Below, piece after piece: positions 3,426 through 23,198 of a stretch of DNA of 64,000 bases. The DNA is from Sphingomonadales bacterium (lineage in GTDB: Bacteria > Pseudomonadota > Alphaproteobacteria > Sphingomonadales > Sphingomonadaceae). Each line of letters begins with the position of its first letter. Within the stretch, counting starts at the first letter, position 1. The DNA is taken from positions 16,298 through 80,297 of the forward strand of contig JANNVL010000082.1 of the NCBI GenBank assembly GCA_031408195.1. The letters run 5' to 3'. The position numbers and the translations under genes were made by a program. The notes beneath the pieces are model-generated. The model was not told the DNA's origin, did not search any database, and worked only from the letters and a program-made list of their open reading frames with translations.

Positions 3426-3462
3426 GCGGCGATATGGACGCGGGCGCAGGGAGCGGCAAGTC

Positions 3463-4329
3463 TTGGCTTTTACGGACGGATATTGGTGGTCGAACGACGG
3501 GTTGCGGCTGCACTACCGCGATTATGCGGGGCAAAGTGCTGCCGCCGCAACGCGTCCGCCGATCCTGTGCTTGCCCGGCCTGACCCGTAATGCCCGCGAT
3601 TTCGAGACGGTGGCTCAGCGGCTGTCGGCGGAGTGGCGCGTAATTGCGGTCGATCTGCGCGGGCGGGGCGAGAGCGCCTATGCCAAGGACGCGATGACCT
3701 ATGTCCCGCTGACCTATGTGCAGGATATCGAGCGGTTACTGACCGATCTGAAGATCGACCGGTTCGTGTCGTTTGGGACATCGCTAGGCGGAATCGTGAC
3801 GATGCTGCTCGCCGCGACTGGCCATGCGCGGCTGGCGGGCGCGGTGCTCAACGATGTCGGGCCAGTGATCGAGGCAGCGGGACTCGACCGCATTCGCGGC
3901 TATGTCGGGCGGGGCGGGGCGTATCCGACTTGGGTCCATGCAGCGCGCGGCATTGCAGAGACTAATGCGGCAGTGTTTCCGCGCTATAACCTGACCGACT
4001 GGCTGGCCATGGCGAAGCGGACCTACCGGCTGTCGTCGAACGGACGGATCGTGCAAGATTACGACAAGAAAATTGCCGAGCCGTTCCGCTTGCCGGGCGG
4101 CGAGGCGGGAATTGATCTGTGGCCTGCATTCGACGCGCTGGCCGACGTGCCGACGCTGATCGTGCGGGGCGGGCTGTCCGACTTGCTTGCGCCCGCAACC
4201 GTCACTGAAATGACCGGGCGGTTGCGTCGGGCGACAGCGGTGACTGTTGCCGACGTTGGCCATGCTCCGGTGCTCGACGAGTCCGAGGCAGCTGCTGCCA
4301 TCGACGCGTTGCTGGCCAAAATCGCCTGA
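3463..4329 (+). CDS. Alpha/beta-fold hydrolase
   Basis: CLPGLTRN, nucleophile elbow GTSLG, C-terminal GHAP. Likely start is TTG at 3463 with GGGAG upstream; the track start at 3298 overlaps selO. Confidence 0.85.
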   Translation: MAFTDGYWWSNDGLRLHYRDYAGQSAAAATRPPILCLPGLTRNARDFETVAQRLSAEWRVIAVDLRGRGESAYAKDAMTYVPLTYVQDIERLLTDLKIDRFVSFGTSLGGIVTMLLAATGHARLAGAVLNDVGPVIEAAGLDRIRGYVGRGGAYPTWVHAARGIAETNAAVFPRYNLTDWLAMAKRTYRLSSNGRIVQDYDKKIAEPFRLPGGEAGIDLWPAFDALADVPTLIVRGGLSDLLAPATVTEMTGRLRRATAVTVADVGHAPVLDESEAAAAIDALLAKIA

Positions 4330-5465
4330 TGCCGGTCAACGTCCTGCATTGCCATTCGACCTTTTCGCTCGGGGGCAAGGAAGCCCGCGCGGTGGCATTG
4401 ATGAACGCGTTCGGCGACCGGGCGCGACATACGATTATCAGTTCGGTGCCGGGCGCGCTCGACGCACGCGCTGCGATTGCGGCGGGGATCGATGCGCGTT
4501 TCCCCGATAATGTCCCGTCGCTGACCGGACGTCCCTCGGTGGCGCGGTACCGCGACATTGCCGACTATATGCGCGGGTTCGATCTGGTGCTGACCTATAA
4601 CTGGGGCGCGATGGACGCGGTGATGGCGCGGCGGATGTTTGGCAAATCACTGCCGCCGCTGGTTCATCACGAGGATGGCTTCAACGCCGACGAGGCGGTC
4701 CGCCTGAAACCCGAGCGCACCCTGATGCGGCGGCTTGCGTTTCCGGCGGCGTCGGCCGTGGTCGTGCCGTCTGGGACGCTCGAAGACATCGCGCTGAAGA
4801 CGTGGAAGCAGCCGCTATCGCGCATCCACCGCATCCCCAACGGCATCCAGACCGCGCGCTATGCGGTAAAACCCAAGCCCAACGCCATTCCGGGGTTACG
4901 CAAAAAGGCGGGCGAGATCGTCATCGGCACAGTTGCCGGTCTGCGTCCGGTCAAGAATTTGCCCCGCCTTGTCGAGGCGGCGCTAATGATCCCGGGCACG
5001 CGGCTCGTCATTATCGGCGAGGGGCCGGAGAAGGACGCGATTGCCGCGAAGGCGCGCGAGATGGGCGTGTTCCAGCGGCTGGTGATGCCGGGCTTCCTGC
5101 CCGACCCGCACCGCTACATCGGCCTGTTCGATATCTTCGCGCTGTCGTCGGACAGCGAGCAGTTCCCGATTGCACTCGTCGAGGCGATGGCGGCGGGACT
5201 GCCGGTCGCCACCACCCATGTTGGCGATGTCGCGGTCATCCTGCCGCCCGAACAATTGCCGCTGGTCACCGAGTGCGACGAATATGCGCTGGCGGCGGCG
5301 CTGCGCCAGCTTGTCGCCGACAAAACGCTGCGCGCCAAGCTCGGGGCGGCAAATCAGGCGCTGGCGACAGCCGCCTATGACGAAACGGCGATGGTCGCTT
5401 CCTACGCCAGGCTCTACGACAGCGCGCTCGGCAATACCGTGCATTTTGCATCCGGCACGCTATAA
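4329..5465 (+). CDS. GT4-family (GT-B fold) glycosyltransferase
   Basis: GGKE N-terminal motif, KNLPRL, SSDSEQFPIALVEAMAAG. TGATG overlap with the upstream hydrolase. Confidence 0.88.
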   Translation: MPVNVLHCHSTFSLGGKEARAVALMNAFGDRARHTIISSVPGALDARAAIAAGIDARFPDNVPSLTGRPSVARYRDIADYMRGFDLVLTYNWGAMDAVMARRMFGKSLPPLVHHEDGFNADEAVRLKPERTLMRRLAFPAASAVVVPSGTLEDIALKTWKQPLSRIHRIPNGIQTARYAVKPKPNAIPGLRKKAGEIVIGTVAGLRPVKNLPRLVEAALMIPGTRLVIIGEGPEKDAIAAKAREMGVFQRLVMPGFLPDPHRYIGLFDIFALSSDSEQFPIALVEAMAAGLPVATTHVGDVAVILPPEQLPLVTECDEYALAAALRQLVADKTLRAKLGAANQALATAAYDETAMVASYARLYDSALGNTVHFASGTL

Positions 5466-5482
5466 CCCCGTATCTAAGGGGT

Positions 5483-6901
5483 ATGGAGATCACCAACTTG
5501 TTCAAGGGTATATCGCCGATCACCTATCGGGGCCGCGAAGTCTGGCCACTGATCGAGGGCGGCAAGGGCGTTGCGGCCACCAATCATGCCAGCGCGGGTG
5601 CCTGGGCAGCTGCGGGCGGCATCGGCACGGTCAGTGCAGTCAACGCCGACAGCTACGACCCGACCGGCAAGATCATTCCGCAAGTCTATGCGGCGCGGAC
5701 ACGGACCGAGCGGCATCAGGAACTTATCGCCTATGCCATCGAGGGCGCGGTCGAACAGGTGAAGCGTGCCTATGACATCGCGTCAGGCAAGGGCGCGATC
5801 AACATCAATGTCCTTTGGGAAATGGGCGGCGCGCAGACGATTTTACACGGGGTGCTTGAACGCACCAAGGGGCTGGTGTCGGGCGTCACTTGCGGTGCCG
5901 GAATGCCTTATAAGCTTAGCGAGATCAGCGCGTCTTACGGGGTAAGCTACCTGCCTATCATCAGTTCAGCGCGTGCATTCCGTGCGCTTTGGAAGCGGGC
6001 CTATTCGAAGGCCGCCGATTATCTGTCGGCGGTGGTGTACGAAGACCCATGGCTCGCGGGCGGCCACAATGGCCTGTCGAATGCCGAAAATCCGCGCGTT
6101 CCCGAGCCGCCTTATCCGCGGGTCAAGGCGCTGCGCGAGACGATGCGCGAGGGCGGCATTCCAGACTCGACACCAATCGTGATGGCGGGCGGCGTCTGGC
6201 ATTTGCGCGACTGGTCCGACTGGATCGACAATCCCGAACTCGGCAGCATCGCGTTTCAGTTCGGCACACGCCCGCTACTGACGCAGGAAAGCCCGATCCC
6301 CCAGGGATGGAAGGACATCCTGACCAAGATCGAAGACGGCGACGTCCTGCTCCACAAATTCTCGCCGACCGGGTTCTACTCATCGGCGATCCGCAACCCG
6401 TTCCTTCGCAATCTCGAAGCGCGCAGCGAACGCCAGATCGCGTTTTCCGGCGAGCAGGCGGGGGATCATACCCACCAGCTCGATGTCGGTGTGAAGGGCA
6501 AGCATTTCTGGGTGACGCGCGGCGATCTGCTGCGCGCCCGCGAATGGTATGGGCTGGGCTATACCGACGCCCTGAAAACGCCCGACAACACTGTTGTGTT
6601 CGTGACTCCGGCGGAAAAAGCAACGATCCGCAAGGACCAGACCGATTGTATGGGGTGCCTGTCGCACTGCGCCTTTTCATCATGGAAGGACCATGACGAC
6701 TGGACAACCGGCTATCTCGCCGATCCGCGTAGCTTCTGCATCCAGAAGACATTGCAGGACGTGGTTCATGGCGGGCCGCTTGACGACAATCTCGTCTTTG
6801 CCGGACATGGCGCGTATAATTTCAAGCGAGACCCGTTCTACTCGAACGGTTTCGTGCCGACCGTCAAACAGCTGGTGGACCGCATCCGGACGGGGGATTA
6901 A
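5483..6901 (+). CDS. Nitronate monooxygenase / FabK-FabX-like flavin oxidoreductase with C-terminal Cys cluster
   Basis: PLIEGGKGV, VTCGAG, VYEDPWLAGGHNG, FQFGTR, and CMGCLSHC...FCIQKTL. Confidence 0.8.
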   Translation: MEITNLFKGISPITYRGREVWPLIEGGKGVAATNHASAGAWAAAGGIGTVSAVNADSYDPTGKIIPQVYAARTRTERHQELIAYAIEGAVEQVKRAYDIASGKGAININVLWEMGGAQTILHGVLERTKGLVSGVTCGAGMPYKLSEISASYGVSYLPIISSARAFRALWKRAYSKAADYLSAVVYEDPWLAGGHNGLSNAENPRVPEPPYPRVKALRETMREGGIPDSTPIVMAGGVWHLRDWSDWIDNPELGSIAFQFGTRPLLTQESPIPQGWKDILTKIEDGDVLLHKFSPTGFYSSAIRNPFLRNLEARSERQIAFSGEQAGDHTHQLDVGVKGKHFWVTRGDLLRAREWYGLGYTDALKTPDNTVVFVTPAEKATIRKDQTDCMGCLSHCAFSSWKDHDDWTTGYLADPRSFCIQKTLQDVVHGGPLDDNLVFAGHGAYNFKRDPFYSNGFVPTVKQLVDRIRTGD

Positions 6902-8133
6902 TCCCCGCGCGTCATCCGCATCGGGGCGACGACTGAAATGGTGAGTGCGGCCAATACTGTCGCAACCGCTGCCCAAAGCATGACGGCGAGCACGGCAATG
7001 GCCTGAGCGGCGATTTGCGTCACGACACCGGTACCCTCGTCGAAATCGGGGCCACCAAGAGCTGGGAGCACGAACAGCGGGAACAGCACCGCTCCGGCCA
7101 TCGCGGGCGCGCCGTGCAGGGTGAAGGCACCTGCTGCACTGCCGAGCCGTGTCCGGCGGACGAGTAACCCTGCCAGCACCGATACCAGCGCGCCGATGGC
7201 ACCCAGCGCCATTGCGCCGCCGGCCCCGACAAATCCCGCTCCGGCAGTGACGGCAGCAAGGCCGACGACTGCATTGTTGGCGATGCCATAGACCGACACG
7301 GCACCGCTTTGGCCACGTTCGATCATCATGCCGGTGACGATAGCAGCACTGGCCGCGAGATGCGCGTTGAGGATCGCGGTTGCGGCGTCGTCACTGCCGC
7401 CGAGTGCCGCTGCGCCGATAAACGCCAGAAACCCGACCCAGATCATCGCTGCGCCCGCAACGGCAAATCGCGAGTCATGCTGCACATCGCCCGGCACTGT
7501 GGCACGCAACAGTAAAGCAACCACGAGAGATGCAACGCCCGCTGCAATCTGGATCGGCATGGCTCCTGCAAAATCGATCGTACCGAGATCGCCCAGCCAG
7601 CCCGGCCATACCCAGCGGGCCAGCGGCACATAAGCGATCAGCAGCCACAGCCCGGAAAACGGCACCAGCCATGCCGGACGCGCTTTTTCACCGACCGAGG
7701 CACACAGAATGCCAACCGCGAAAAGCGCAGCGACCATTTCAAACACCGCGTAAATGGACTCGGAAATCGTCGCGCCATCGACAAGCTCGGACATATTGCC
7801 GAGCATCGCATTGCCGACGCCGCCGAGATACGGGCTGCCCGCACCAAAGGCGAGGCTGTAACCGATCCCGGCGAACAGCAATGACGCGACAGCAATGCCG
7901 CCGAACAGCGCGAAACCCGTCGGTCCGGCGCGTCCGCGACCATAGAATAACGCTAGCCCGGGCAGAATGGCTACGAGAGCGAGAATGGAGCTGGCCATCA
8001 CCCAAGCGCTGTCGCCGCTATCGGCGACGATCATCGGTTGCGCGAGCGCAGGCGCTGCCGTCAGCGCGATACCCGTTGTCAATACCGCCCTAATCGTCCG
8101 CATCGCAGCTGCACTCCCCGTTTGCATCGCCAC
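6898..8133 (-). CDS. Ammonium transporter (Amt) family protein, degenerate
   Basis: DSGDSAWV, PGLALFYG, GYSLAFG, DFAG and LHG match the AmtB scaffold; several pore residues are substituted (see findings). Confidence 0.85.
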   Translation of the reverse strand: MAMQTGSAAAMRTIRAVLTTGIALTAAPALAQPMIVADSGDSAWVMASSILALVAILPGLALFYGRGRAGPTGFALFGGIAVASLLFAGIGYSLAFGAGSPYLGGVGNAMLGNMSELVDGATISESIYAVFEMVAALFAVGILCASVGEKARPAWLVPFSGLWLLIAYVPLARWVWPGWLGDLGTIDFAGAMPIQIAAGVASLVVALLLRATVPGDVQHDSRFAVAGAAMIWVGFLAFIGAAALGGSDDAATAILNAHLAASAAIVTGMMIERGQSGAVSVYGIANNAVVGLAAVTAGAGFVGAGGAMALGAIGALVSVLAGLLVRRTRLGSAAGAFTLHGAPAMAGAVLFPLFVLPALGGPDFDEGTGVVTQIAAQAIAVLAVMLWAAVATVLAALTISVVAPMRMTRGD

Positions 8134-8186
8134 GCTAAGGCGTCGGAGTTAAAGGTTCAACAAAATGGGGAACAGACAGTCGCCGC

Positions 8187-8735
8187 TTGTCGCGCGGCTG
8201 CGGATTTGGCAGGTCGGGGTGCAGAACATCCGGGAGAACCGCCGTGCTTCGCTTATCGACTGTTGCGACCGCCGTCGCCGCTGTGCTGATCGCTACCACG
8301 CCCGCCACCGCTGCGCGCAAGCTCCCATATTGGGCGTCGCTCAATGCGACCGAGGTCATGATGCGGACCGGGCCGGGACGCAATTTTCCCGCTGACTGGC
8401 TTTACAAGCGTAAGGGGCTGCCGGTGAAGGTGGTCAAGACCTATAAGGCGCAACATGCCGAATGGCGGCGCATTCAGGATCCCGACGGAGCCGAGGGTTG
8501 GGTGCAGGCCAATTTGCTGACCGACGCACGGGCAGGGCTGGTGACCGGTGACGTCCGCCCGCTCCGCGATAAGCCGAATGCCGCCGCTGCGATCGTCTGG
8601 CGCGCCGAACCCGGTGTCGTGGGGAAGGTCAGCCAATGTGCTGGCGGCTGGTGCCTGTTCGATGCGCGCGGACGTGCAGGGTATATCGAGGTCGCGCACT
8701 TGTTCGGTGTGGGGACCGACGAAAAGCTGCCGTGA
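8187..8735 (+). CDS. Bacterial SH3-domain protein (two SH3_4-like repeats); start uncertain
   Basis: YWASL...MRTGPGRNFPADWLYKRKGLPVKV...WRRIQDPDGAEGWV, second repeat ending in GWC...GYI; hydrophobic signal-like segment. Confidence 0.8.
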   Translation: MSRGCGFGRSGCRTSGRTAVLRLSTVATAVAAVLIATTPATAARKLPYWASLNATEVMMRTGPGRNFPADWLYKRKGLPVKVVKTYKAQHAEWRRIQDPDGAEGWVQANLLTDARAGLVTGDVRPLRDKPNAAAAIVWRAEPGVVGKVSQCAGGWCLFDARGRAGYIEVAHLFGVGTDEKLP

Positions 8736-9466
8736 CTTGGCTATTGCCTGCGCTTGGCGCGGGCGCGGGCCTGATTGCGGGTAGTTTTCTGGCGACTTTG
8801 GTCGTTCGTTGGCCAATAGGCGCGGGGCTTGGCGGACGGTCGATATGCGATGGGTGCCATGTGCCGCTCGGGGTACGCGACCTGATCCCGCTGCTTTCGT
8901 TTGCGGCGGCAAGCGGGCGGTGCCGGACCTGCGGCGACGCGATCGATCCGGTTCATCCGATAGTGGAACTCTGCTGCGCGGCGGTGGGTGGGATTGCGCT
9001 TGCCTTGTCGCCCGACGCGGCAGGGCTGACGGGGATGTTTATCGGCTGGTTGCTCGTCGCGCTTGCGGCGCTCGACATCCGTGATTTCTGGTTGCCCGAC
9101 GTGCTGACGGCGGCGGTCGGGATGGTTGCGGCCCTGTCATGCTGGGTCGTCGATCCGCCGGGGACAATCGACCGGATCATCGGCGGCATTGCTGCATTCG
9201 GCAGCCTGTGGCTGATTGCCGCGCTCTATCGGCAGCTCAGGGCGCGCGAAGGGCTGGGCGGTGGCGACCCCAAGCTGTTCGGCGCGATAGGTTTGTGGCT
9301 CGGCTGGCAACCGTTGCCGTTCGTGCTGCTCGGGGCGAGCGGAGTCGGACTGGTTGCGGTGCTGGCGATGATGCTGCGCGGACGGACGGTGAGTGCGACA
9401 ACGCGGTTGCCGTTCGGGGCACTGCTGGCGGTGGCGGCATTGCCGGTTTGGGTGTTTATGCGTTGA
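8732..9466 (+). CDS. Prepilin peptidase (A24; PilD/GspO family)
   Basis: Two CxxC motifs (CDGC, CRTC), LDIRDFWLPD and GLGGGDPKL aspartyl motifs, LPFGALL. GTG start at 8732 overlaps the SH3 stop (GTGA). Confidence 0.88.
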   Translation: MTWLLPALGAGAGLIAGSFLATLVVRWPIGAGLGGRSICDGCHVPLGVRDLIPLLSFAAASGRCRTCGDAIDPVHPIVELCCAAVGGIALALSPDAAGLTGMFIGWLLVALAALDIRDFWLPDVLTAAVGMVAALSCWVVDPPGTIDRIIGGIAAFGSLWLIAALYRQLRAREGLGGGDPKLFGAIGLWLGWQPLPFVLLGASGVGLVAVLAMMLRGRTVSATTRLPFGALLAVAALPVWVFMR

Positions 9467-10067
9467 GTCGCGCAGCCGCCTCGGCCCGCGCCCGAATCAG
9501 CGCCGTATCGGGCACCCCCTTCGGCACGATCCAACTTCCCCCGACGCATAGCACGGCTTCTTCGGCGAGCCACTCTGCCGCCGTTGCCTCGGTAATGCCA
9601 CCAGTCGGGCAGAAGCGCACTTGGCCGAAGGGTGCGGCAAGCGCCTTGAGCGCGGGCAAGCCGCCGCTAGCCGTCGCCGGAAAAAACTTGAATCGGTTCA
9701 GCCCCAGATCGAGGCCGCGCATCAGGTCGCTGGCGTTGGCGGTGCCGGGCAGGAACGGGATGCCGCTGGCGATGGCGGCCCGGGCGAGGGGGTCGGTGAG
9801 GCCGGGACTGACAATGAACTTCGCGCCCGCATTCAGCGACGCATCGAGATCGGCGGCGTTTAGGACTGTTCCCGCACCGATAATGGCGCCCTCTACCTTG
9901 GCCATTTCGGCAATCACATCGAGCGCGACCGCTGTCCGCAACGTGACTTCGAGGACGCGCAGGCCGCCCGCCACCAGCGCCTCGGCAATCGGCGCGGCAT
10001 GGGCGACATCGTGGATCACCAGCACCGGGATGACCGGTGCGGTCCGCATGATCGCTTCGATATTCAT
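9456..10067 (-). CDS. eda: KDPG/KHG aldolase
   Basis: From ATG 10067: PVIPVL, LEVTLRT, GAGTV, FIVSPG, FKFFPA, FCPTGGI, VGGSW. ATGA overlap with the glk stop. Confidence 0.95.
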   Translation of the reverse strand: MNIEAIMRTAPVIPVLVIHDVAHAAPIAEALVAGGLRVLEVTLRTAVALDVIAEMAKVEGAIIGAGTVLNAADLDASLNAGAKFIVSPGLTDPLARAAIASGIPFLPGTANASDLMRGLDLGLNRFKFFPATASGGLPALKALAAPFGQVRFCPTGGITEATAAEWLAEEAVLCVGGSWIVPKGVPDTALIRARAEAAARLNA

Positions 10068-11032
10068 TGGGTATGCTCCCGGGCGAACGCGGCAGCAGCA
10101 CCGAACAGGCCGGGCTGCGGATGGGTGATAAGTTTCACGGGCACCGACCGTATCAGCGTTTCGAACCGGCCCTTGGCGGCGAAGCGTTCGGCAAATCCCG
10201 AGCGCGGCAGATGGTCGCGCAGACGCAGGCCGACTCCGCCCGCGATGACGACGGCGGTCGGCCCGTTGATAAGCGCACAATCGCCCGCGATGGCCCCAAG
10301 GCTAAGGCAAAACCGGTCGAGCGCGGCGGCAGCGAGGCTGTCGCTACCGTCGAGCGCCGCCTGCCACAATTGCTTGTCGTCGCGTTCGGGGATTGGGCGG
10401 CCCTCGAGCCGCGCGAGCACGGCGTGGATCGCGGCAAGCCCCGGTCCTGACACAATGCGCTCGACCGAGACGCGGCGGAACGTCTTGCGGAGGTCGGCGA
10501 GTATGGCATCCTCGATGCTGTCGAGCGGTGCGAAATCGACGTGGCCGCCTTCACAGGCGATCACATGATAGGCCGCGCCGTCGCGGAACAGCTGGCCGAC
10601 GCCAAGCCCGGTGCCGGGACCAACGATGCTGATTATCCCGTGCTCGGGCAACGGTTCATCGGGGCCGCAGATGTGGTGGAGGTCATTCGCGCCGACCTGT
10701 GCGACCGCATGGCCAACAGCTTCGAAGTCATTGACCAGCACATGGGCATCGACGCCCAGTTTTTCGGGGATGAGCGCGGGGCGGATGATCCACGGGTTAT
10801 TGGTGAGTTGCAGCACCTCGCCTTTGATCGGGCAGGCAATGGCGATGGCTGCGGCGTGGGGCAGGGGGGCGGCCTGCGTTGCGGCGAATGCTTCCCACGC
10901 AGTCTGGAAACTGGCGTGTTCGGCTGTCTTGAGCGTGACGGGATCGCCGAGCGACTGGACGCGCCCGTCCGCCACTTCGGCGAGTGCAAAGCGGGCGTGG
11001 GTGCCGCCGATGTCGACTGCGACGACGTTCAT
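10064..11032 (-). CDS. glk: Glucokinase
   Basis: VDIGGTHARFA, VNDFEA, GPGTGLG, EGGHVDF, ERIVSGPGL, GGV motifs. Confidence 0.93.
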   Translation of the reverse strand: MNVVAVDIGGTHARFALAEVADGRVQSLGDPVTLKTAEHASFQTAWEAFAATQAAPLPHAAAIAIACPIKGEVLQLTNNPWIIRPALIPEKLGVDAHVLVNDFEAVGHAVAQVGANDLHHICGPDEPLPEHGIISIVGPGTGLGVGQLFRDGAAYHVIACEGGHVDFAPLDSIEDAILADLRKTFRRVSVERIVSGPGLAAIHAVLARLEGRPIPERDDKQLWQAALDGSDSLAAAALDRFCLSLGAIAGDCALINGPTAVVIAGGVGLRLRDHLPRSGFAERFAAKGRFETLIRSVPVKLITHPQPGLFGAAAAFAREHTQ

Positions 11033-16039: not shown

Positions 16040-16052
16040 TTGGACAGTGTGC

Positions 16053-16080
16053 TTAACAAAATCGAGGTTTCGCTAACCAT
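16053..16080 (+). promoter_or_regulatory. CtrA-like half-sites upstream of the CHASE2-EAL gene
   Basis: TTAAC at 16053-16057 and CTAACCAT at 16073-16080 in a short AT-rich intergenic gap. Confidence 0.35.
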
Positions 16081-16147
16081 TTATTCGGGACCGGTCGGGT
16101 AGCGCTGTCAGGCACAAGGACGCCCGACCGTAGATGACCCGACCCGA

Positions 16148-18499
16148 TTGCCCCCTGTGGCTGCAAAGCGGACTCGCCGGATGAGGCGCGTCTCGCTCCG
16201 CGCCCTGTGGTCACGCTTCCGCGCCGCATCGCGGGTACGGATCATGACCTATGCGCTGCTGGCATCGGTGTTGTGCGGAGTCACTGGCTTCCTCGAACCG
16301 CTCGACGATTTTGCGCGGAATATACGATACTCGTTGCGTCATGTGTCCGCTGATGGGTCAATCGTGGTTGTTTCCATTGACCAGAAAAGTGCCCGCGAAC
16401 TTGGTGGCAAGTATCCGTGGCCGCGGACCGTTGATGCCCAACTGATCGAACGGTTAAAATCGGCAGGCGCGAAAAAAATTGTCTTTGATCGTTCGTTCGC
16501 TGATGTCGATACTGCGGCAAATGATACGTCTTTGAACCGCACGCTAGATCGTTATCGCGGCGATATCTATTTTGGTTCCGGGATTTTGACGGTCAGTCGT
16601 GATGTGATCACCTCGACGATGATGCCTGCAGCCGTCTATCGACCTCATGTCGAAATCGGCACGTTGATGCAGTGGACCAACCCGATCGGGCAGCTGGCAG
16701 AATTGTACGTCGAAAACCCCAATGCGGATGCTCGCTATCCCGGGTTGTCTGTCATATTATCGGGGGCACCCGCGCCACGATCAGAACGGTTTCGTCCTGA
16801 TTTTGCCATCCGGAGTTCGACGTTTCCGACGTATTCGGTTTCCGATGTTGTATTAAATCGGGTTGGCCCGGACGAACTGGCTGGTCGAGATGTTATCATC
16901 GGCCTTGGTGAAATGGCATTCGGGGACAGCCATTACTTGCCCGGACAAGGTCGTATGCAAGGCGTTTACGCCCACGCCATCGGCGCGCAAACACTAAAGC
17001 GCGGAACACCGGTCGAACTCGGATGGTTCTATCCCATGTTGGCCGTTGGCATCGCGGCGTTCGCATTGCTTCGCACCCGTCGCGTTGCGTCTAGTGGCGC
17101 AACGGTAATGGGAGCGGGTGTTGCTCTGGCGTTCGTCCCGCTAGCTCTTGATGGGTACCTGCTGTCGGTTGACATTGCCCCTGCAACGCTGTTTTTTAGT
17201 ATCGTGTTGGTGCAGCACGCCCGATTGACTTTTGGCTGGCGCAAAAGTCGCACGCATGAGCATTCCGGGCTACCGAATGCCATTGCGCTGCGGGAAGTAA
17301 AGTCAGGTGCGGCACACGCGTTGATAGCAGCAAGGATAGACAATCACGCGGCGATCACCGCCAGCTTTGCCAAGGATGTCGAGCCTCTGATTGCCGCAGA
17401 AATTGTGGGGCGCCTGAAAGTCGGTGACGGCGGCATCAACGTCTATCAGGGCGATGAGGGTGTCTATTATCTGTTGTCGCCGATCACCGATACCATGCTT
17501 CTGTTCGAGCATCTCGACGGCCTTCATGCGCTGTTTTCTCAGCCAATTCGCGTTGGTGACCGCCAGGTCGATGTCGCGATTACATTTGGCATCGATAATA
17601 ATCCCGCTCGCGCAATGTCGAGCCGGGTTGGTAGCGCATTGCTGAGTGCTGAAGACGCGCGGCGGCAAGGTCTTCGCTGGAAACTCTATGAAGAGGCCCG
17701 CGGTGCCGATGCGGCGTGGGAACTCGCACTTGGCGGTGAAATCGATCGCGGGTTGGCGGCGGACGAATTCTGGCTAGCCTACCAGCCAAAGCTCGATCTC
17801 CGCACCGACACGATTGTCGGGGCGGAAGTTCTCGTGCGCTGGTCGCATCCCCAGCGCGGTGCAATCAGTCCGGTAGATTTCATCGCTGCTGCCGAACGCG
17901 ACCACAGGATCGAACGGCTAACCCGGTTCGTTTTCGAGCGTGCCGTGCAGGACGCAACAGTTATGGGGCGCACGGCTCAACTGTCGCTTGCCCTCAACGT
18001 CTCGGTCCCCGTGCTGCGCCGACCGGAATTTGCCGGCTATGTTATCGATCTCGTGACGCGACACGGGCTGGCCCCGCAACAGTTCACGATCGAAATTACC
18101 GAATCGGTGTTCTTTTCGGTCGATGACGATGTCGTTGTCGACAATCTGCAACGGTTGGGGGCGGCAGGTTTCGGCATTTCAATCGACGATTTCGGCACAG
18201 GCTATTCGACATTCGAATCGGTCCAGCGCATTCCCGCGACCGAAGTGAAGATCGACCAGACTTTCGTGAAAGCGCTGGGCGAACGCTCCGCCGACCGGAT
18301 CATTGTCGAATCGATCATCAAAATGGCGCAAGGACTGCGCCGTACCGTTGTCGCCGAAGGCGTCGAGGATGCCGCGACACTGGCCGAACTCAGGACGCTC
18401 GGGTGCGATCAAGTGCAGGGTTACTTCATCAGCCGACCGCAGCCGTTCGGCAGCTTCATCGATTTTGTTGCCCAGCGTTCGCAACGAAACGCAGCTTGA
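16148..18499 (+). CDS. CHASE2 sensor + degenerate GGDEF + EAL c-di-GMP phosphodiesterase; start uncertain (16148/16181/16244)
   Basis: Periplasmic CHASE2-like segment (YPWPR, IVFD, VIIG) then TM helices. GGDEF position reads QGDEG. EAL domain has AYQPK, AEVLVRW, DDFGTGYS, EVKIDQ, EGVE, QGYFISRP. Confidence 0.85.
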   Translation: MPPVAAKRTRRMRRVSLRALWSRFRAASRVRIMTYALLASVLCGVTGFLEPLDDFARNIRYSLRHVSADGSIVVVSIDQKSARELGGKYPWPRTVDAQLIERLKSAGAKKIVFDRSFADVDTAANDTSLNRTLDRYRGDIYFGSGILTVSRDVITSTMMPAAVYRPHVEIGTLMQWTNPIGQLAELYVENPNADARYPGLSVILSGAPAPRSERFRPDFAIRSSTFPTYSVSDVVLNRVGPDELAGRDVIIGLGEMAFGDSHYLPGQGRMQGVYAHAIGAQTLKRGTPVELGWFYPMLAVGIAAFALLRTRRVASSGATVMGAGVALAFVPLALDGYLLSVDIAPATLFFSIVLVQHARLTFGWRKSRTHEHSGLPNAIALREVKSGAAHALIAARIDNHAAITASFAKDVEPLIAAEIVGRLKVGDGGINVYQGDEGVYYLLSPITDTMLLFEHLDGLHALFSQPIRVGDRQVDVAITFGIDNNPARAMSSRVGSALLSAEDARRQGLRWKLYEEARGADAAWELALGGEIDRGLAADEFWLAYQPKLDLRTDTIVGAEVLVRWSHPQRGAISPVDFIAAAERDHRIERLTRFVFERAVQDATVMGRTAQLSLALNVSVPVLRRPEFAGYVIDLVTRHGLAPQQFTIEITESVFFSVDDDVVVDNLQRLGAAGFGISIDDFGTGYSTFESVQRIPATEVKIDQTFVKALGERSADRIIVESIIKMAQGLRRTVVAEGVEDAATLAELRTLGCDQVQGYFISRPQPFGSFIDFVAQRSQRNAA

Positions 18500-18503
18500 A
18501 AGC

Positions 18504-18538
18504 TTAACTCCTTGCTAACCACTTAATAATTCGGTAAC
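18504..18538 (+). promoter_or_regulatory. Two tandem CtrA-box-like motifs
   Basis: TTAA-CTCCTTG-CTAAC (18504-18519) and TTAA-TAATTCG-GTAAC (18523-18538), each one mismatch from TTAA-N7-TTAAC. Confidence 0.55.
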
Positions 18539-18584
18539 CAAATGACGCGCGCGCTGTATTGCGTGGCTTAACTAGGGGATCGAA

Positions 18585-18662
18585 ATGCGTAAGGTTATTC
18601 GCCCGACGCGCGGATTCTGGGACTGGCTCTTCGGATCCGGTAACGCAGGCGGCCGCGACTAA
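18585..18662 (+). CDS. Unannotated 25-aa small protein MRKVIRPTRGFWDWLFGSGNAGGRD
   Basis: ATG 18585 preceded by SD-like AGGGGA, TAA at 18660-18662, followed by a terminator. Below the ORF-track cutoff. Confidence 0.6.
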   Translation: MRKVIRPTRGFWDWLFGSGNAGGRD

Positions 18663-18675
18663 AGTCAGGTTTTAC

Positions 18676-18705
18676 GAAAAGGCCTCGGTAACCCGGGGCC
18701 TTTTC
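18676..18705 (+). terminator. Rho-independent terminator
   Basis: GAAAAGGCCTCGG-TAAC-CCGGGGCCTTTTC stem-loop (one G-U pair) with T tract. Confidence 0.8.
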
Positions 18706-18713
18706 TGTATCTG

Positions 18714-19481
18714 GTGTCGATGATCGAACCCGACGCCACATTTCACCACTTCACGGCACTCGACGGTGCCCAACTCGTCTGGCATGAAATGGGGGCGGGC
18801 AGACCAGTGGTTCTGCTCCACGGCCTTTTCTCCGACGCGCGGACAAACTGGATCCGCTACGGACATGCCAAACTACTGATAGAAAACGGTTTTCGGGTCA
18901 TCATGCCCAATCTGCGCGCGCATGGATCGAGCGCAAAATCGCATGACCCGGCGGCCTATCCGACCGATGTTCTCGTCGATGACGGCCTGTCGCTGATCGC
19001 CCATCTGGGCCTCTCCGACTATGATCTTGGGGGGTATTCGCTGGGCGGGCGGACGGCACTGCGGATGGTCGTGCGGGGCGCAAAACCCCGTCGCCTGATC
19101 GTGTCGGGCATGGGTCTGTCGGGGCTTACCGACACCACCCCACGCACGAATCACTTCAAGCACATTCTCGATAACCTTGGCCGATTCGAAAAGTTTACGC
19201 CCGAACGGAATGCCGAGTCGTTCCTGAAGACGACTCGGGGTGATTCGGTGGCATTGCGGCTGCTGCTCGACACATTTATTGACACTTCGCCGGAATCGAT
19301 TGCGGAAATTGCGGTTCCGACTCTGGTTTTGTCGGGCGAAGAGGACAGCGACAATGGATCGGTCGAGGCGCTGGCCGCGCTGCTTACCGATGCCCGTCTT
19401 GTCCGCACCCCCGGCGGCCATATGAGCGCCGTGACCAAGCCCGAACTGGGGCAAGCTATCGCCGATTTCCTGACCGCTTGA
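18714..19481 (+). CDS. Alpha/beta-fold hydrolase
   Basis: VVLLHGLFS, NLRAHGSS, GYSLG nucleophile elbow, PGGHMSA. Confidence 0.85.
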   Translation: MSMIEPDATFHHFTALDGAQLVWHEMGAGRPVVLLHGLFSDARTNWIRYGHAKLLIENGFRVIMPNLRAHGSSAKSHDPAAYPTDVLVDDGLSLIAHLGLSDYDLGGYSLGGRTALRMVVRGAKPRRLIVSGMGLSGLTDTTPRTNHFKHILDNLGRFEKFTPERNAESFLKTTRGDSVALRLLLDTFIDTSPESIAEIAVPTLVLSGEEDSDNGSVEALAALLTDARLVRTPGGHMSAVTKPELGQAIADFLTA

Positions 19482-19538: not shown

Positions 19539-21404
19539 GTGAAGTATTCGCTCGTTTCCGCGCTGGCACTGACCATCGCGACGCCCGCTGTCGCGCAAAA
19601 TGCTGCGCCGGTTACTGCGCCGACCGCAGCGGATGCCGATGCCTTTGTGGCGGCCGCTGAAAAGGAAGCATTCGATTTCAGCATTTTCGGCAGCCAGGTC
19701 GCCTGGGTCAACAACACCTATATCACCGACGATACCGACGCCTTGAACGCGCGCGTAGGGACGCAGGGGACCGAAATGGGGGTGCGTTACGCCAAGGGGG
19801 CGGCGCGGTTCAACGATGTTGCGGGCCTGTCATACGACACGAAGCGCAAACTCGACATGCTGCGCCAGGGACTCGTGCTGCCTGCGCCTTCGACGCCGGG
19901 TGCCGCGACCGAGCTCAACACGATCGCGACGCGACTGAATTCGACCTATGGCAAGGGCAAGGGCACGCTGAAGGGTGCGGCAATTAACGGTTCGGACATC
20001 GAGGCGGCAATGGGAACGAGCCGCAATCCTGACGAACTGAAAGAGATGTGGGCAAGCTGGCACACCCAAGTCGGTGCGCCGATGAAGGCCGATTACGCCC
20101 GCATGGTCGAAATCGCCAATCAGGGTGCCAAGGAGCTCGGCTATGCCGATGTCGGCGCGATGTGGCGCTCGGGCTATGACATGACGCCCGAGCAATTCGC
20201 GGCGCTAACCGACAAGCTCTGGGCGGAGGTCAAGCCGCTCTACGACCAGGTCCATTGCTACACCCGCGCCAAGCTCAACGAGAAATACGGCGACGCGGTG
20301 CAGGCCAAGACCGGCCCGATCCGTGCCGACCTGCTCGGCAATATGTGGGCGCAGGAATGGGGCGATGTTTACGATATCGTCGCACCAAAGGGCGCAGGTG
20401 ACGTGGGCTACGAGATCGGCGACCTGCTGAAGTCTAAGGGCTATATCGAAACCGATCCGCGCGAAACCGATGCGGCGAAACGCGGCAAGTGGGAAACCGC
20501 GATGTTCAAGATCGGCGAGGGTTTTTTCTCGTCGTTGGGTTTCGCGCCACTACCGAAAACATTCTGGGAACGCACCCAGTTCATCAAGCCGCTCGACCGC
20601 GATGTGGCGTGCCATGCCAGCGCATGGAATCTTGACCAGAAAGACGATCTCCGAGTCAAAATGTGTACGAAGGTCAATGGCAACGACTTTGTGACGATCC
20701 ACCACGAACTCGGCCACAACTATTACCAGCGCGCCTATAACAAGCAGCCGTATCTGTATCTCAATGGCGCAAACGACGGATTCCACGAGGCGATCGGCGA
20801 CACCGTCGCGCTGTCGATCACACCGCAATATCTGGTCCAGATCGGGTTGCTTGCGCCCGACAAGGTGCCGAGTGCCGACAAGGACATCGGCCTGCTGCTG
20901 AAACAGGCAATGGACAAGGTCGCGTTCCTGCCCTTCGGCCTGCTGGTCGATCGCTGGCGCTGGGGCGTTTTCGACGGGAGCACGACGCCCGCCAACTACA
21001 ACAAGGCGTGGACCGCACTGCGCCTGAAGTATCAGGGGATTACGCCGCCGGTCGCGCGCGACGATGCGACTGCATTCGATGCGGGTGCGAAGTACCACAT
21101 CCCCGGCAACACGCCCTACACGCGCTACTTCCTCGCGCGACTGCTGCAATTCCAGTTCTACGAAGCGGCCTGCAAGCAGGCCGGATGGAAGGGGCCGCTG
21201 CATCGCTGTTCGTTCTACGGCAACAAGGAAGTCGGCAAGCGATTCAATGCGATGCTGGAAATGGGCGCGTCGAAGCCGTGGCCCGACGCGCTGCAGGCGT
21301 TCACCGGAAGCCGCGAAATGAGCGGCAAGTCGATGATCGCGTACTTCAAGCCGCTGATGAGCTGGCTGAAAACGCAGAACAAGGGGCAGAGCTGTAGCTG
21401 GTAG
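19539..21404 (+). CDS. M2-family zinc peptidyl-dipeptidase (ACE-like), secreted
   Basis: Signal peptide; LLGNMWAQEW, CHASAW, HHELGH (HExxH), GANDGFHEAIGD, FDAGAKYHIP. Confidence 0.92.
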   Translation: MKYSLVSALALTIATPAVAQNAAPVTAPTAADADAFVAAAEKEAFDFSIFGSQVAWVNNTYITDDTDALNARVGTQGTEMGVRYAKGAARFNDVAGLSYDTKRKLDMLRQGLVLPAPSTPGAATELNTIATRLNSTYGKGKGTLKGAAINGSDIEAAMGTSRNPDELKEMWASWHTQVGAPMKADYARMVEIANQGAKELGYADVGAMWRSGYDMTPEQFAALTDKLWAEVKPLYDQVHCYTRAKLNEKYGDAVQAKTGPIRADLLGNMWAQEWGDVYDIVAPKGAGDVGYEIGDLLKSKGYIETDPRETDAAKRGKWETAMFKIGEGFFSSLGFAPLPKTFWERTQFIKPLDRDVACHASAWNLDQKDDLRVKMCTKVNGNDFVTIHHELGHNYYQRAYNKQPYLYLNGANDGFHEAIGDTVALSITPQYLVQIGLLAPDKVPSADKDIGLLLKQAMDKVAFLPFGLLVDRWRWGVFDGSTTPANYNKAWTALRLKYQGITPPVARDDATAFDAGAKYHIPGNTPYTRYFLARLLQFQFYEAACKQAGWKGPLHRCSFYGNKEVGKRFNAMLEMGASKPWPDALQAFTGSREMSGKSMIAYFKPLMSWLKTQNKGQSCSW

Positions 21405-21416
21405 AATGTGAGCCGC

Positions 21417-23198
21417 TTACACCCTCAGCCGCGCGACCATCTGGCGCAGCAGTGCCAGCATGGTCTGCGGAAAGGCAGTCAGGAACCGCTCGAACCGCTC
21501 GTAGCTGAGGGTCAACACGTTGGTTTCGGCGTCGGCGCGCAGTGACGCCGTGCGGTGCAGACCAGCGAAGAGTCCGTATTCGCCCGACAGTGCACCCGGA
21601 CCAAGCGACGCTACGGTCGCGCCTGCTGTATCAACCACGGTGAGGGAGCCGATTTCGACGAGGTAGACATGGTCCGCCGCGTCGCCCGCGCGGCAGAGCC
21701 AGTCGTTGGCCGCAACATGCTGCGGCTCGAACATCGTGGCGAGCAAGGCCAATTCGGTCGCGGGCACGTCGGCGAAGACGGGGTTCTCTACCAGCAGCGC
21801 CACGCGCGCCGCGATCGTCTTGGCGGGTAATTCGGCGATGCACAGATTGAAAAACCGGGTCGCGCGGGCAAGTTGTGCGCGCCAGCGGCGGTTCTCTGTG
21901 AAATTGCGCGGCGGCAGGATGCTGGCGTCGCCGGTCAGCCGGGCCGCTTCGCGAAGGCCCGAGAGATAGGCACCGTGCGCGGTTCCCCAATGCATTTCGC
22001 TACTTGCTTCGCCCGCGAACAACAGCGTGGCGCCGACCGGTGCCGCGAGTGCCGCCCGGTCTTCGGGCGTCGAGCCGATGGCTGCGTAACTATAGGCACC
22101 GAACGCGAAAGGATCGCTCGACCAACCGGTTCGGTGCAGGGCGACCGGCGCCGGACAATCACGCCCAAGCGCGCGGGCAATGGCATCCCGCGCAAAGGCA
22201 ATGGCCGCTGCATCGTCCATCGCTTCTACGGCAACGCCGGCACGGCCTCCGATCAGCACGGTCAGCCGCGCCGCACCACCGACGGGCAGGTCGCTAACCA
22301 CGAAGCAGGGTGTTGCACTGTCGCCGCCGCCCTCGACACCGAAACAATAAGGGCCGGCGGGCCAGAACGGCGCAGCAAAATCAAGCGCGACTTTGGCGAG
22401 CGTGCCGACCCCGAGCCGGGCAATCGCCACGGTCTTTGCCTCGGGAAGCGGCGGATCAAAGGCGATCTGTTCCCGTTTCAGCACACCGAGCGGGATCGTC
22501 ACGATCGCGGCGGCAGCAGTGTGGATGCCGCGCGTCGTCATGACCGTGATACCGTCGACATCGTGCTTGATCGCAACCACGCTCTCGCCGGTGAGGATGT
22601 TGAGTCCTTCGGCCAGCACTTCGGCAAAGCGCGAGAACCCGCCGCGCACGACGCTGTCGCCATAGCCATAGACCTCGAACCCTGCGTCCCAATAGCGCGC
22701 TGACATCTGCGCGGGATCGCACGCGCAATTGTCACGAACGAGCGCGTGTAGGTGCCAGCAGGCGTGTGCCCGATCCGCAAGTGACAGGCCAAGTTCGGTC
22801 ATCGCTTGTTCGGCGACATCGGCGATCGAGACGTCGTCACCGTCCTGACTTCTCAACTTGTCGATCCGGTCGGCAACATGGTCAGCAGCAAGGATGCTAT
22901 CGTCGCGGGCGAAGCCGTCGGGGAAGGCGAGGCGCTCCCAGGAACCGGTATAGGTGCTGTCGCCGCCGACAAAGACCAGCGGCAGTTCGTGGCGGTGGGC
23001 AAGCGAGGTAAGCGGATTGCCCTCGGTCTCGTGAATCCAGTGCGCGCCCAAGTCGATGCCATCGATACTGTGCACCCGCCCGCCGATGCGGTCGCGCCCT
23101 TCGATGATGCGGACACTGCGCCCGGCATCGGTCAGCGCGCGGGCAGCAGCAAGGCCCGCTAGACCTGCGCCTATGACAAGGACATCAACGGGTTTCAA
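21417..23198 (-). CDS. Flavin-dependent amine oxidase (MAO/PAO/LSD1 fold) fused to a C-terminal cyclic-nucleotide-binding domain
   Basis: IGAGLAGLAAA, EGRDRIGGR, DLGAHWIH, FAGEA...GTAHGAYLSGLREA, then a cNMP domain with GEYGLFAGLHRTASLRA. TTG start overlaps the upstream TGA. Confidence 0.85.
   Translation of the reverse strand: MKPVDVLVIGAGLAGLAAARALTDAGRSVRIIEGRDRIGGRVHSIDGIDLGAHWIHETEGNPLTSLAHRHELPLVFVGGDSTYTGSWERLAFPDGFARDDSILAADHVADRIDKLRSQDGDDVSIADVAEQAMTELGLSLADRAHACWHLHALVRDNCACDPAQMSARYWDAGFEVYGYGDSVVRGGFSRFAEVLAEGLNILTGESVVAIKHDVDGITVMTTRGIHTAAAAIVTIPLGVLKREQIAFDPPLPEAKTVAIARLGVGTLAKVALDFAAPFWPAGPYCFGVEGGGDSATPCFVVSDLPVGGAARLTVLIGGRAGVAVEAMDDAAAIAFARDAIARALGRDCPAPVALHRTGWSSDPFAFGAYSYAAIGSTPEDRAALAAPVGATLLFAGEASSEMHWGTAHGAYLSGLREAARLTGDASILPPRNFTENRRWRAQLARATRFFNLCIAELPAKTIAARVALLVENPVFADVPATELALLATMFEPQHVAANDWLCRAGDAADHVYLVEIGSLTVVDTAGATVASLGPGALSGEYGLFAGLHRTASLRADAETNVLTLSYERFERFLTAFPQTMLALLRQMVARLRV

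Follow-up and report, generated by a model that had tools for sequence, protein, structure and literature searches.

Short ribosomal peptides that are encoded next to their presumed membrane receptors are best described for the double-glycine-leader pheromones of the ComC/ComAB/ComD type, in which an acidic, amphipathic leader directs export by a peptidase-containing ABC transporter (PCAT) and the receptor is a histidine kinase. A second kind of peptide partner is represented by small proteins of fewer than 50 amino acids that act on one membrane sensor, such as MgrB or SafA with PhoQ; these are separately regulated, have a true transmembrane helix and are usually not encoded next to the sensor. 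CHASE2 (PF05226) is a widespread periplasmic sensor domain whose ligands are essentially unknown and for which no structure or ligand complex is known. The only studied CHASE2 inputs, those of the Sinorhizobium (S. meliloti) cyclases CyaD1, CyaD2 and CyaK, respond to a signal of protein nature, plant uL2 sensed via the outer-membrane protein NsrA (PMC13001267). Finally, short open reading frames with clustered aromatic codons followed by an intrinsic terminator are known as attenuation leader peptides (trpL, pheL).

Here, we describe an unannotated 25-codon gene in a 64,000-nucleotide stretch of DNA from a Sphingomonadales bacterium (hereafter, the window), which lies directly behind a gene for a membrane protein with a periplasmic CHASE2 domain, a degenerate GGDEF-like domain and an EAL phosphodiesterase domain. 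It belongs to a widespread, previously undescribed family of peptides of 24-27 amino acids with the consensus MKK-x3-6-R-G-F-W-x-W-L-x-G-x-G-(W)-x3-G-x-x-G, of which more than 130 copies were recovered, and it is probably the peptide signal or modulator of the adjacent c-di-GMP-degrading sensor. An earlier note, made from the sequence alone, had described a self-contained unit of CtrA-like boxes, Shine-Dalgarno sequence, peptide gene and terminator, and this observation is confirmed. The note had further proposed that the peptide may be the ligand or modulator of the neighbouring CHASE2 sensor, in a two-gene module controlling c-di-GMP; this interpretation is partly supported, as the genetic tie to the receptor gene holds, whereas action of the peptide as the CHASE2 ligand is inferred only. 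The coordinates of the unit are collected in the table.

Features of the peptide gene and its surroundings (positions in the 64,000-nucleotide window)
Positions	Strand	Feature	Details
16181..18499	+	Receptor gene, CHASE2 / GGDEF-like / EAL	Start at ATG 16181 set by the 772-aa orthologues
18500..18541	+	Conserved promoter/operator-like motif of the peptide gene	Starts directly after the receptor stop codon; contains TTGCTAACC and GGTAACC; best hit of the family position-weight matrix in the whole 64 kb (9.5 bits; next best -12)
18504..18519	+	CtrA-box-like site 1	TTAA-N7-CTAAC, overlapping the -35-like hexamer TTGCTA; the same site is conserved in the main clade (TTAATCGTTTGCTAAC) and is a perfect TTAA-N7-TTAA in locus L211
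18523..18538	+	CtrA-box-like site 2	TTAA-N7-GTAAC
18574..18579	+	Shine-Dalgarno sequence	AGGGGA, 5 nt before the ATG; AGGGG conserved 5-8 nt before the start codon in all orthologues
18585..18662	+	Peptide gene	MRKVIRPTRGFWDWLFGSGNAGGRD, ATG at 18585, TAA at 18660-18662; basic N-terminus, conserved F-W-x-W-L-x-G-x-G core, variable Gly-rich tail
18677..18708	+	Intrinsic terminator	A-tract, 8-bp GC-rich stem, UAAC loop, U-tract; would end both the peptide transcript and any read-through receptor transcript
18681..18700		Hairpin of the terminator	GGCCTCGG-TAAC-CCGGGGCC, flanked by an A-tract and TTTTCTGT
18720		ATG of the alpha/beta-hydrolase gene	12 nt after the T-run of the terminator; followed by a gene for an M2 (ACE-like) peptidase

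A 25-codon reading frame alone means little, since 149 open reading frames of at least 20 amino acids are present in 9 kb of this DNA, and it is conservation that identifies it as a gene. A scan of a genome collection with the receptor protein returned only EAL-domain paralogues at 30-43% identity, and a DNA search of plasmids gave no match. In contrast, a protein search yielded a graded series of receptor orthologues from 95% down to 32% identity, including those of Sphingomonas sp. SUN039 (CP096972) and Sphingomicrobium, so the window comes from a sphingomonad. The small reading frame was found behind the orthologues whose contigs were fetched, encoding MRKVIRPTRGFWDWLFGSGNAGSRD, MRKVVRPTRGFWDWLFGTGNAGSRD, MRKVNRPARGFWDWLFGDGNAGGRN (SUN039), MRKVNCPARGFWDWLCGDGNSGSRN, MRKDKRPNRGFWTWLFGDGAAGSR, MKKNIPARWSFWSWLLGSGSANGGATG and MKKQTRGFWSWLMGSGWASGGGNG. 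A pattern built only from the peptide gene (AGGGG, ATG, M-[RK]-K, F-W-x-W-L-x-G) was then scanned over a metagenome collection and matched at least 120 stretches. From these and the orthologue loci 134 reading frames were extracted (111 distinct DNA sequences, 102 distinct peptides), almost all of 24-27 amino acids.

Several features that the pattern did not impose are conserved in this set, including R or K before G-F-W, the second Gly of G-x-G (101 of 102), an aromatic residue after it (73 of 102), Gly at two tail positions and the position of the stop codon. Conserved columns use all synonymous codons, with Gly GGC/GGT/GGG/GGA at 37/27/21/9, Arg CGC/CGT/CGG/CGA/AGG, five Leu codons, and Ser in both TCN and AGY, and the stop is TAA in 72, TGA in 32 and TAG in 7 cases. 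Entropy is highest at third codon positions (0.77, 0.66 and 1.14 for the three positions). Judged from codon use, this is a translated gene under purifying selection, and we are highly confident that it is real. Within the clade of the window the peptide coding sequence is the most conserved DNA of the locus, at 83-90% identity against 63-65% for the end of the EAL gene. No Pfam or NCBIfam model matches the peptides, and no Rfam family reaches its gathering score at the locus, the best hits being 18-21 bits against thresholds of 43-55 and covering the terminator. Of the 10 peptide sequences looked up in a collection of 15 billion proteins, the four from the window's clade and locus L085 (including that of the finished SUN039 genome) and two others are absent, and two main-clade members were called by JGI without a name. 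The case also shows that conserved genes of fewer than 30 codons are missed by annotation.

The gene has its own promoter-like motif and terminator. About 70 nt before the ATG lies a 42-nt motif with the family consensus ATGGTTAATCGTTTGCTAACCATATCGATTAAGGTTAATATC (median 66 bits), which in 734 kb of fetched DNA was found only in front of peptide genes, including extra tandem copies that the peptide pattern had missed because they use GTG starts. The motif contains a -35-like TTGCTA, a 17-nt spacer and TAATAT, with a TTAA-N7-CTAAC site over the -35, and the window's clade keeps TTGCTAACC and both TTAA-N7-xTAAC sites. The two sites in the window are the only matches to TTAA-N8-TAAC in its 64 kb, where 0.13 are expected by chance. 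Each matches 8 of 9 positions, one base short of the TTAA-N7-TTAA(C) consensus for CtrA boxes, and the CtrA label, which the earlier note had also used, rests on sequence resemblance only. A sigma-28 promoter was considered and rejected, as GCCGAATC resembles a -10 element but the spacing to any TAAA is wrong. Of the family members with enough downstream sequence, 120 of 130 have a hairpin of -10 kcal/mol or stronger followed by a T-run; in the window the hairpin was missed by a consensus terminator scan, probably because the A/T tracts extend the stem. Only 5 of 65 loci have a terminator between the EAL stop codon and the peptide promoter, and the window has none there, so that the peptide gene probably also lies on the receptor mRNA. 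Seven loci have two pattern-matching copies of the peptide and more have divergent second copies, but no second peptide gene was found behind the second, convergent CHASE2-EAL gene of locus L085.

Conservation of the reading frame and the constancy of its CHASE2-EAL neighbour had been named in advance among the points on which the proposal could fail, and the peptide-only scan addresses the latter without circularity. Of the metagenome loci with at least 450 nt of upstream sequence, 94 of 95 have an EAL domain ending 90-420 nt upstream on the same strand, and all 60 loci with at least 2.6 kb upstream have CHASE2 and EAL. The one exception, locus L150, carries the same peptide as three loci that do have the receptor, and changes to unrelated DNA about 110 nt before the promoter; it is probably an assembly junction or a rearrangement. 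Conversely, all 10 group-I receptors, the window's own and nine fetched by protein look-up, carry the peptide. Many of the 94 loci share synteny (pntAB ... yjbQ) and are not independent. Nevertheless, other neighbours, with genes called using a GC3 filter because longest-ORF calling gives spurious antisense frames in this high-GC DNA, are not constant. Upstream of the pair lie zwf and aldehyde dehydrogenase genes, pntAB or a YbaK-like gene, and downstream lie the hydrolase and M2 peptidase genes (the window's clade only), a convergent second CHASE2-EAL gene, yjbQ-ybaK, glycosyltransferase (GT2) genes or convergent pntA. The pair survives several such rearrangements, and divergence down to 32% receptor identity. 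We are confident, though less so than of the gene itself, that the peptide is functionally tied to this receptor.

The receptor scores 82.6 bits for CHASE2 (cut-off 26.3) and 226 bits for EAL (PF00563; cut-off 31.3). Hydropathy and motifs predict TM1 at residues 33-51 (783-aa ORF numbering), a periplasmic CHASE2 domain at about 52-290, three transmembrane segments at 293-358, a degenerate GGDEF-like domain (SGLPN..., with YQGDEG in place of GGDEF) and an EAL domain in which the catalytic motifs EVL, N, EITE, DDFGTGYS, KID, EGVE and QG are intact, so that it is, as judged from sequence, probably an active phosphodiesterase. GGDEF-EAL proteins in the PDB (DosP, MorA and FimX) align from about residue 390-440 onwards, and the sequence search of the PDB gave no informative relative for CHASE2. 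An AlphaFold2 model of the periplasmic domain is confident (pLDDT 94), but a Foldseek search with it found no structural neighbour in the PDB, the best match having E 0.07 and TM 0.2. There is no structural precedent for what the domain binds.

The most distant receptor relatives were informative. Receptor P0047 (32% identity) is followed by MDVFKGIWAWFRESFGQR, an 18-aa reading frame with a Shine-Dalgarno sequence, a terminator, the ATTAAGGTTAAT element and a perfect TTAA-N7-TTAA site, so the W-x-W core goes deep. Receptor P0045 (33%, an Allosphingosinicella-type clade) has no downstream peptide, but is the last gene of an operon comprising a 32-aa double-glycine-leader precursor, MEKRDIVELTEAEIAAVAGG/ARGTEQSTGIRG, a CvaA/HlyD-like protein and a C39-peptidase ABC exporter. 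Receptor P0179, 49% identical to P0045, repeats this operon with MQIEQDVPVELTDAEIAEVAGG/VINGNQGSTGVKG, a full HlyD adaptor and the exporter, and is followed by a convergent PilZ gene. The catalytic Cys and His of the C39 domain are present, and the leaders give weak hits to TIGR03949 (E 0.003). Precursor homologues form clusters of 10 and 4, with invariant leaders and cores that vary in the middle, and lie on contigs equal in length to those carrying three other receptor orthologues. The rigid promoter matrix does not detect the promoters of these GG-type peptide genes, and only loose words (TTGCTA, GCCGA(A)T) are shared, so common regulation of the two peptide types is not shown. A neighbour-joining tree places all W-x-W-linked receptors in one group, which is sister to a group holding this GG/PCAT clade and a clade whose receptor gene overlaps a ShlB/POTRA gene. 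Thus, the receptor orthogroup is coupled to a small peptide gene in both major branches, and in one of them the peptide is evidently exported.

The peptide of the window has the layout of a leader plus core, as the earlier note had suggested, with a conserved N-terminal two-thirds and a variable Gly-rich tail. The tail of the window's clade ([SDT]GN[AS]G[GS]R[DN]; SGNAGGRD in the window) resembles the exported core NSGNAGVKG of the sister clade more than composition-preserving shuffles do (z about 4; 0 of 300 shuffles reach it), although these are short, low-complexity Gly/Ser/Asn sequences from non-independent relatives. Among 67 receptor-peptide pairs (effective number about 55), the receptor columns covarying most with tail columns lie in the periplasmic CHASE2 domain in 47 of 84 cases (32 expected), against 14 of 84 for N-terminal peptide columns of similar entropy. 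The contrast holds within entropy strata (nominal p of 0.003-0.01), but the effect is modest (about 1.5-fold) and is not corrected for phylogeny, and we treat it as a hint. In a first covariation pass the top pairs overall were enriched in the GGDEF-like domain and TM1, an enrichment driven by the clade-marker columns 3, 11 and 30.

Evidence for export of the peptide itself is lacking among the signals examined. There is no Sec, Tat or lipoprotein signal; RR occurs in only a few members, and Cys in only a subset and in the wrong context for a lipobox. A double-glycine leader has 15-30 residues and ends in GG, GA or GS, with hydrophobic residues at -4, -7 and -12 and acidic residues. In the peptide of the window G-S-G lies at residues 17-19, with L at -4 and W at -7 if cleavage follows G-S, but the N-terminus (MRKVIRPTR) is basic, without acidic residues, and gives no hit to leader HMMs. 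G-x-G before the tail would suit either a GG-type protease or signal peptidase I, which is speculation. Searches by tblastn with the exporters of the sister-clade loci L210 and L213 and the HlyD adaptor found nothing in the 64-kb window or in the flanks of any W-x-W locus. The earlier note had stated that the peptide does not fit lasso rules, and this holds. A lasso precursor has Thr at -2 of the leader, a ring-forming Asp or Glu at core position 7-9, and adjacent B (protease/RRE) and C (Asn-synthetase-like cyclase) genes. Here no acidic residue sits at the required position, no such genes or other modifying enzymes appear in any neighbourhood by Pfam search of the neighbours, and the only conserved neighbour is the receptor.

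Taken together, the reading that we favour, though at no better than even confidence, is that the microprotein is the dedicated signalling partner of the CHASE2 / GGDEF-like / EAL protein. In this view it would be transcribed from its own promoter, and probably also by read-through on the receptor mRNA, and translated from a strong Shine-Dalgarno sequence. The basic and F-W-x-W-L-x-G-x-G part would act as a leader or membrane-targeting segment, and the Gly-rich tail (here GNAGGRD-like) would be presented to, or released into, the periplasm, where CHASE2 would sense it and change the activity of the cytoplasmic EAL domain and so the c-di-GMP level, as an autocrine or quorum-type loop. The analysis itself establishes that the gene is real and under protein-level selection, that it has a conserved promoter-like motif and terminator of its own, that it is strictly linked to this receptor family, that the receptor has a periplasmic CHASE2 domain and intact EAL motifs, and that the sister receptor clade sits in an operon with an exported-type double-glycine peptide. 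Translocation and processing of the peptide, its binding to CHASE2 or any other part of the sensor, the direction of its effect on the phosphodiesterase, and binding and control by CtrA are inferences from sequence and context. The conservation of the W-x-W-L core above that of the tail could also mean that the core itself is the binding surface, and the operon evidence comes from a different clade with a different peptide type and gene order.

The main alternative, possible but less likely, is that the peptide stays inside the cell as a membrane-interface or cytoplasmic modulator, with its basic N-terminus and Trp-rich segment at the inner leaflet, and binds the transmembrane or juxtamembrane region or the GGDEF-like/EAL module of the receptor to tune its phosphodiesterase activity or localisation; it would work like MgrB or SafA on PhoQ, without being a diffusible signal. 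The absence of an export signal and of a nearby exporter, the invariance of the aromatic core, the strict linkage in cis and probable co-transcription with the receptor, and the first covariation pass would fit this view, and a cationic N-terminus plus a Trp-rich segment is typical of interface-binding peptides. However, the hydrophobic run of about 6-8 residues is too short for a transmembrane helix, the first-pass enrichment reflects clade markers, tail columns point to the periplasmic domain, and the sister clade uses an evidently exported peptide. It is unlikely that the peptide has a function unrelated to the receptor, for example as a stress, membrane or antimicrobial peptide merely inherited next to the CHASE2-EAL gene in Sphingomonadaceae and sharing its 3' end. 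All evidence for a functional link is contextual, many loci are not independent, and a cationic Trp-rich composition resembles antimicrobial peptides; yet the pair survives where both flanks have changed, the promoter-like motif occurs nowhere else in 734 kb, the single possible exception looks like an assembly junction, and the sister clade independently couples a peptide gene to the same receptor family.

Two further readings are essentially excluded. Ribosome stalling at the Phe and Trp codons (two of each within six codons) could in principle control read-through of the terminator into the hydrolase and M2-peptidase genes, since the short distance to the hydrolase ATG leaves no room for a promoter. 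However, downstream genes differ between clades and are sometimes convergent (loci L085 and L117) while the reading frame, its amino-acid sequence and its terminator are kept, the conservation is of peptide sequence and not only of codon type, no antiterminator alternative was found, and the Rfam Phe_leader hit covers only the terminator, at 20.8 bits against a gathering threshold of 55. A non-coding small RNA with an incidental reading frame would be consistent with the promoter-like motif and terminator, a transcript of about 130-170 nt and the very high nucleotide conservation within the window's clade. Against this stand the synonymous-codon turnover, the TCN/AGY serine switches, three different stop codons at a fixed position, the conserved Shine-Dalgarno sequence and ATG, a fold z-score of only -1.8 and the lack of an Rfam match, although a dual-function RNA is not excluded.

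Finding what activates individual c-di-GMP enzymes is a long-standing problem, and a co-inherited 25-aa peptide offers a concrete, testable candidate input for a sensor domain of this kind, an idea also supported by the operon of the sister clade. In a more far-reaching reading, which the evidence permits but which we consider somewhat less likely than not, sphingomonads would use self-encoded ribosomal peptides as extracellular signals that the orphan CHASE2 domain reads and converts directly into c-di-GMP degradation. There would be two interchangeable delivery formats, a classical GG leader with a PCAT exporter in one clade and a new, exporter-less basic/W-x-W leader in the other. This would provide the first ligand class for CHASE2, a peptide quorum or autocrine circuit in Gram-negative alphaproteobacteria wired to a second messenger without a kinase, and a new kind of leader or export route. 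As peptide-based cell-cell signalling is regarded as typical of Gram-positive bacteria, such a circuit would widen that picture.

The principle of a peptide and its cognate receptor is known, and literature searches found no CHASE2-peptide system; what is new here is the peptide family, the proposed leader type, the receptor class and the proposed direct second-messenger output. Compared with attenuation leaders such as trpL and pheL, the locus shares a short reading frame with clustered aromatic codons, a following terminator and, in the window, a position directly upstream of other genes, but it is not tied to those genes and is conserved as an amino-acid sequence. Like MgrB and SafA, it encodes a peptide of fewer than 50 amino acids, separately regulated and thought to act on one membrane sensor, but its longest hydrophobic or aromatic run, FWDWLF, is flanked by Gly and falls short of the 18 or so residues of a transmembrane helix, and it lies strictly adjacent to its presumed sensor. 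With CyaD1, CyaD2 and CyaK the receptor shares the periplasmic sensor domain and topology, but its output is EAL rather than a cyclase and the proposed input is a self-encoded 25-aa peptide. Finally, in common with the ComC/ComAB/ComD type, a short ribosomal peptide with a conserved N-terminal and a variable C-terminal part is encoded next to its presumed membrane receptor, and the sister clade has the full set of GG leader, HlyD adaptor and C39-ABC exporter; the peptide of the window differs in its basic, Trp-rich N-terminal part, in the absence of a PCAT nearby, in a receptor that is a CHASE2-EAL c-di-GMP phosphodiesterase by prediction rather than a histidine kinase, and in its occurrence in Gram-negative alphaproteobacteria.

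In the window, the alpha/beta-hydrolase ATG lies only 12 nt after the peptide gene's terminator, leaving no room for a promoter, and the hydrolase gene is followed by a gene for a secreted ACE-like M2 dipeptidyl-carboxypeptidase. Transcription of these two genes must come through the terminator. This arrangement is confined to the window's clade, and the notion that the peptidase might process or degrade the peptide is pure speculation. Beyond the peptidase, a flavin amine oxidase is fused to a C-terminal cyclic-nucleotide-binding domain (593 aa in all), which is an unusual pairing near a c-di-GMP locus. The coordinates of these and the further features considered here are collected in the table.

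Positions of additional features in the window and in the loci compared with it
Feature	Sequence	Position	Strand
Region upstream of the receptor gene with a word loosely resembling part of the peptide promoter	window	16050-16095	
CHASE2 periplasmic domain	window	16301-17017	
Junction between the peptide gene's terminator and the alpha/beta-hydrolase gene	window	18709-18722	
Alpha/beta-hydrolase gene	window	18720-19481	
M2 peptidase gene	window	19539-21404	
Flavin amine oxidase gene with C-terminal cyclic-nucleotide-binding domain	window	21417-23198	-
Region of the second, divergent CHASE2-EAL gene, convergent to the first	L085 (also L086)	7035-10322	
Region of the peptide gene and promoter not preceded by the receptor	L150	1700-2320	
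Region of the CHASE2-EAL gene overlapping a ShlB/POTRA gene	L215 (also L216, L217)	2858-6777	
Conserved 5′ element of the peptide gene	main-clade loci (e.g. L095, L100)	about 25-40 nt before the ATG	

Some genomes carry two tandem paralogous peptide genes, 270-420 nt apart, behind one receptor gene, as seen in the peptide-bearing loci L091, L134, L140, L154, L155, L169 and L175, and also in L137, L143, L151, L161 and L186. Each copy has its own promoter motif and terminator, and some copies use GTG starts. Locus L150 is the only one in which the peptide gene and its promoter are not preceded by the receptor. There, the sequence switches to an unrelated gene about 110 nt upstream of the promoter motif, whereas identical peptides in three other loci (L099, L170 and L194) do have the receptor. 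L150 is therefore probably an assembly chimera or a strain-level rearrangement.

CHASE2-EAL genes were also found without an accompanying peptide gene of this type. In L085, one of the loci carrying the receptor and its peptide, and also in L086, a second, divergent CHASE2-EAL gene lies convergent to the first and next to a FecR-domain gene, and it has no W-x-W peptide gene behind it. In a third receptor clade (37% identity), represented by the loci L215, L216 and L217, the CHASE2-EAL gene overlaps the end of a gene for a ShlB/POTRA outer-membrane transporter. A signal-peptide-bearing, possibly FecR-like protein seems to be encoded divergently upstream, and no small peptide gene was seen. For the periplasmic CHASE2 domain of the window's own receptor, AlphaFold2 gives a confident alpha/beta model (pLDDT 94, pTM 0.91), but a Foldseek search with this model returned no significant match in the PDB, and CHASE2 appears to have no solved structural relative.

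The region upstream of the window's receptor gene contains TTAAC...TTCGCTAACCAT, which loosely resembles the TTGCTAACCA word of the peptide promoter; however, it does not score with the family matrix, and common regulation is therefore not shown. In main-clade loci, the 5′ region of the peptide gene carries a conserved CTGCCGAATCGCAG element, a small hairpin with a GCCGAAT loop. A similar GCCGA(A)T word precedes the Shine-Dalgarno sequence of the GG-leader peptide genes in L210 and L213, two loci in which a double-glycine-leader peptide is encoded together with a CHASE2-EAL receptor.
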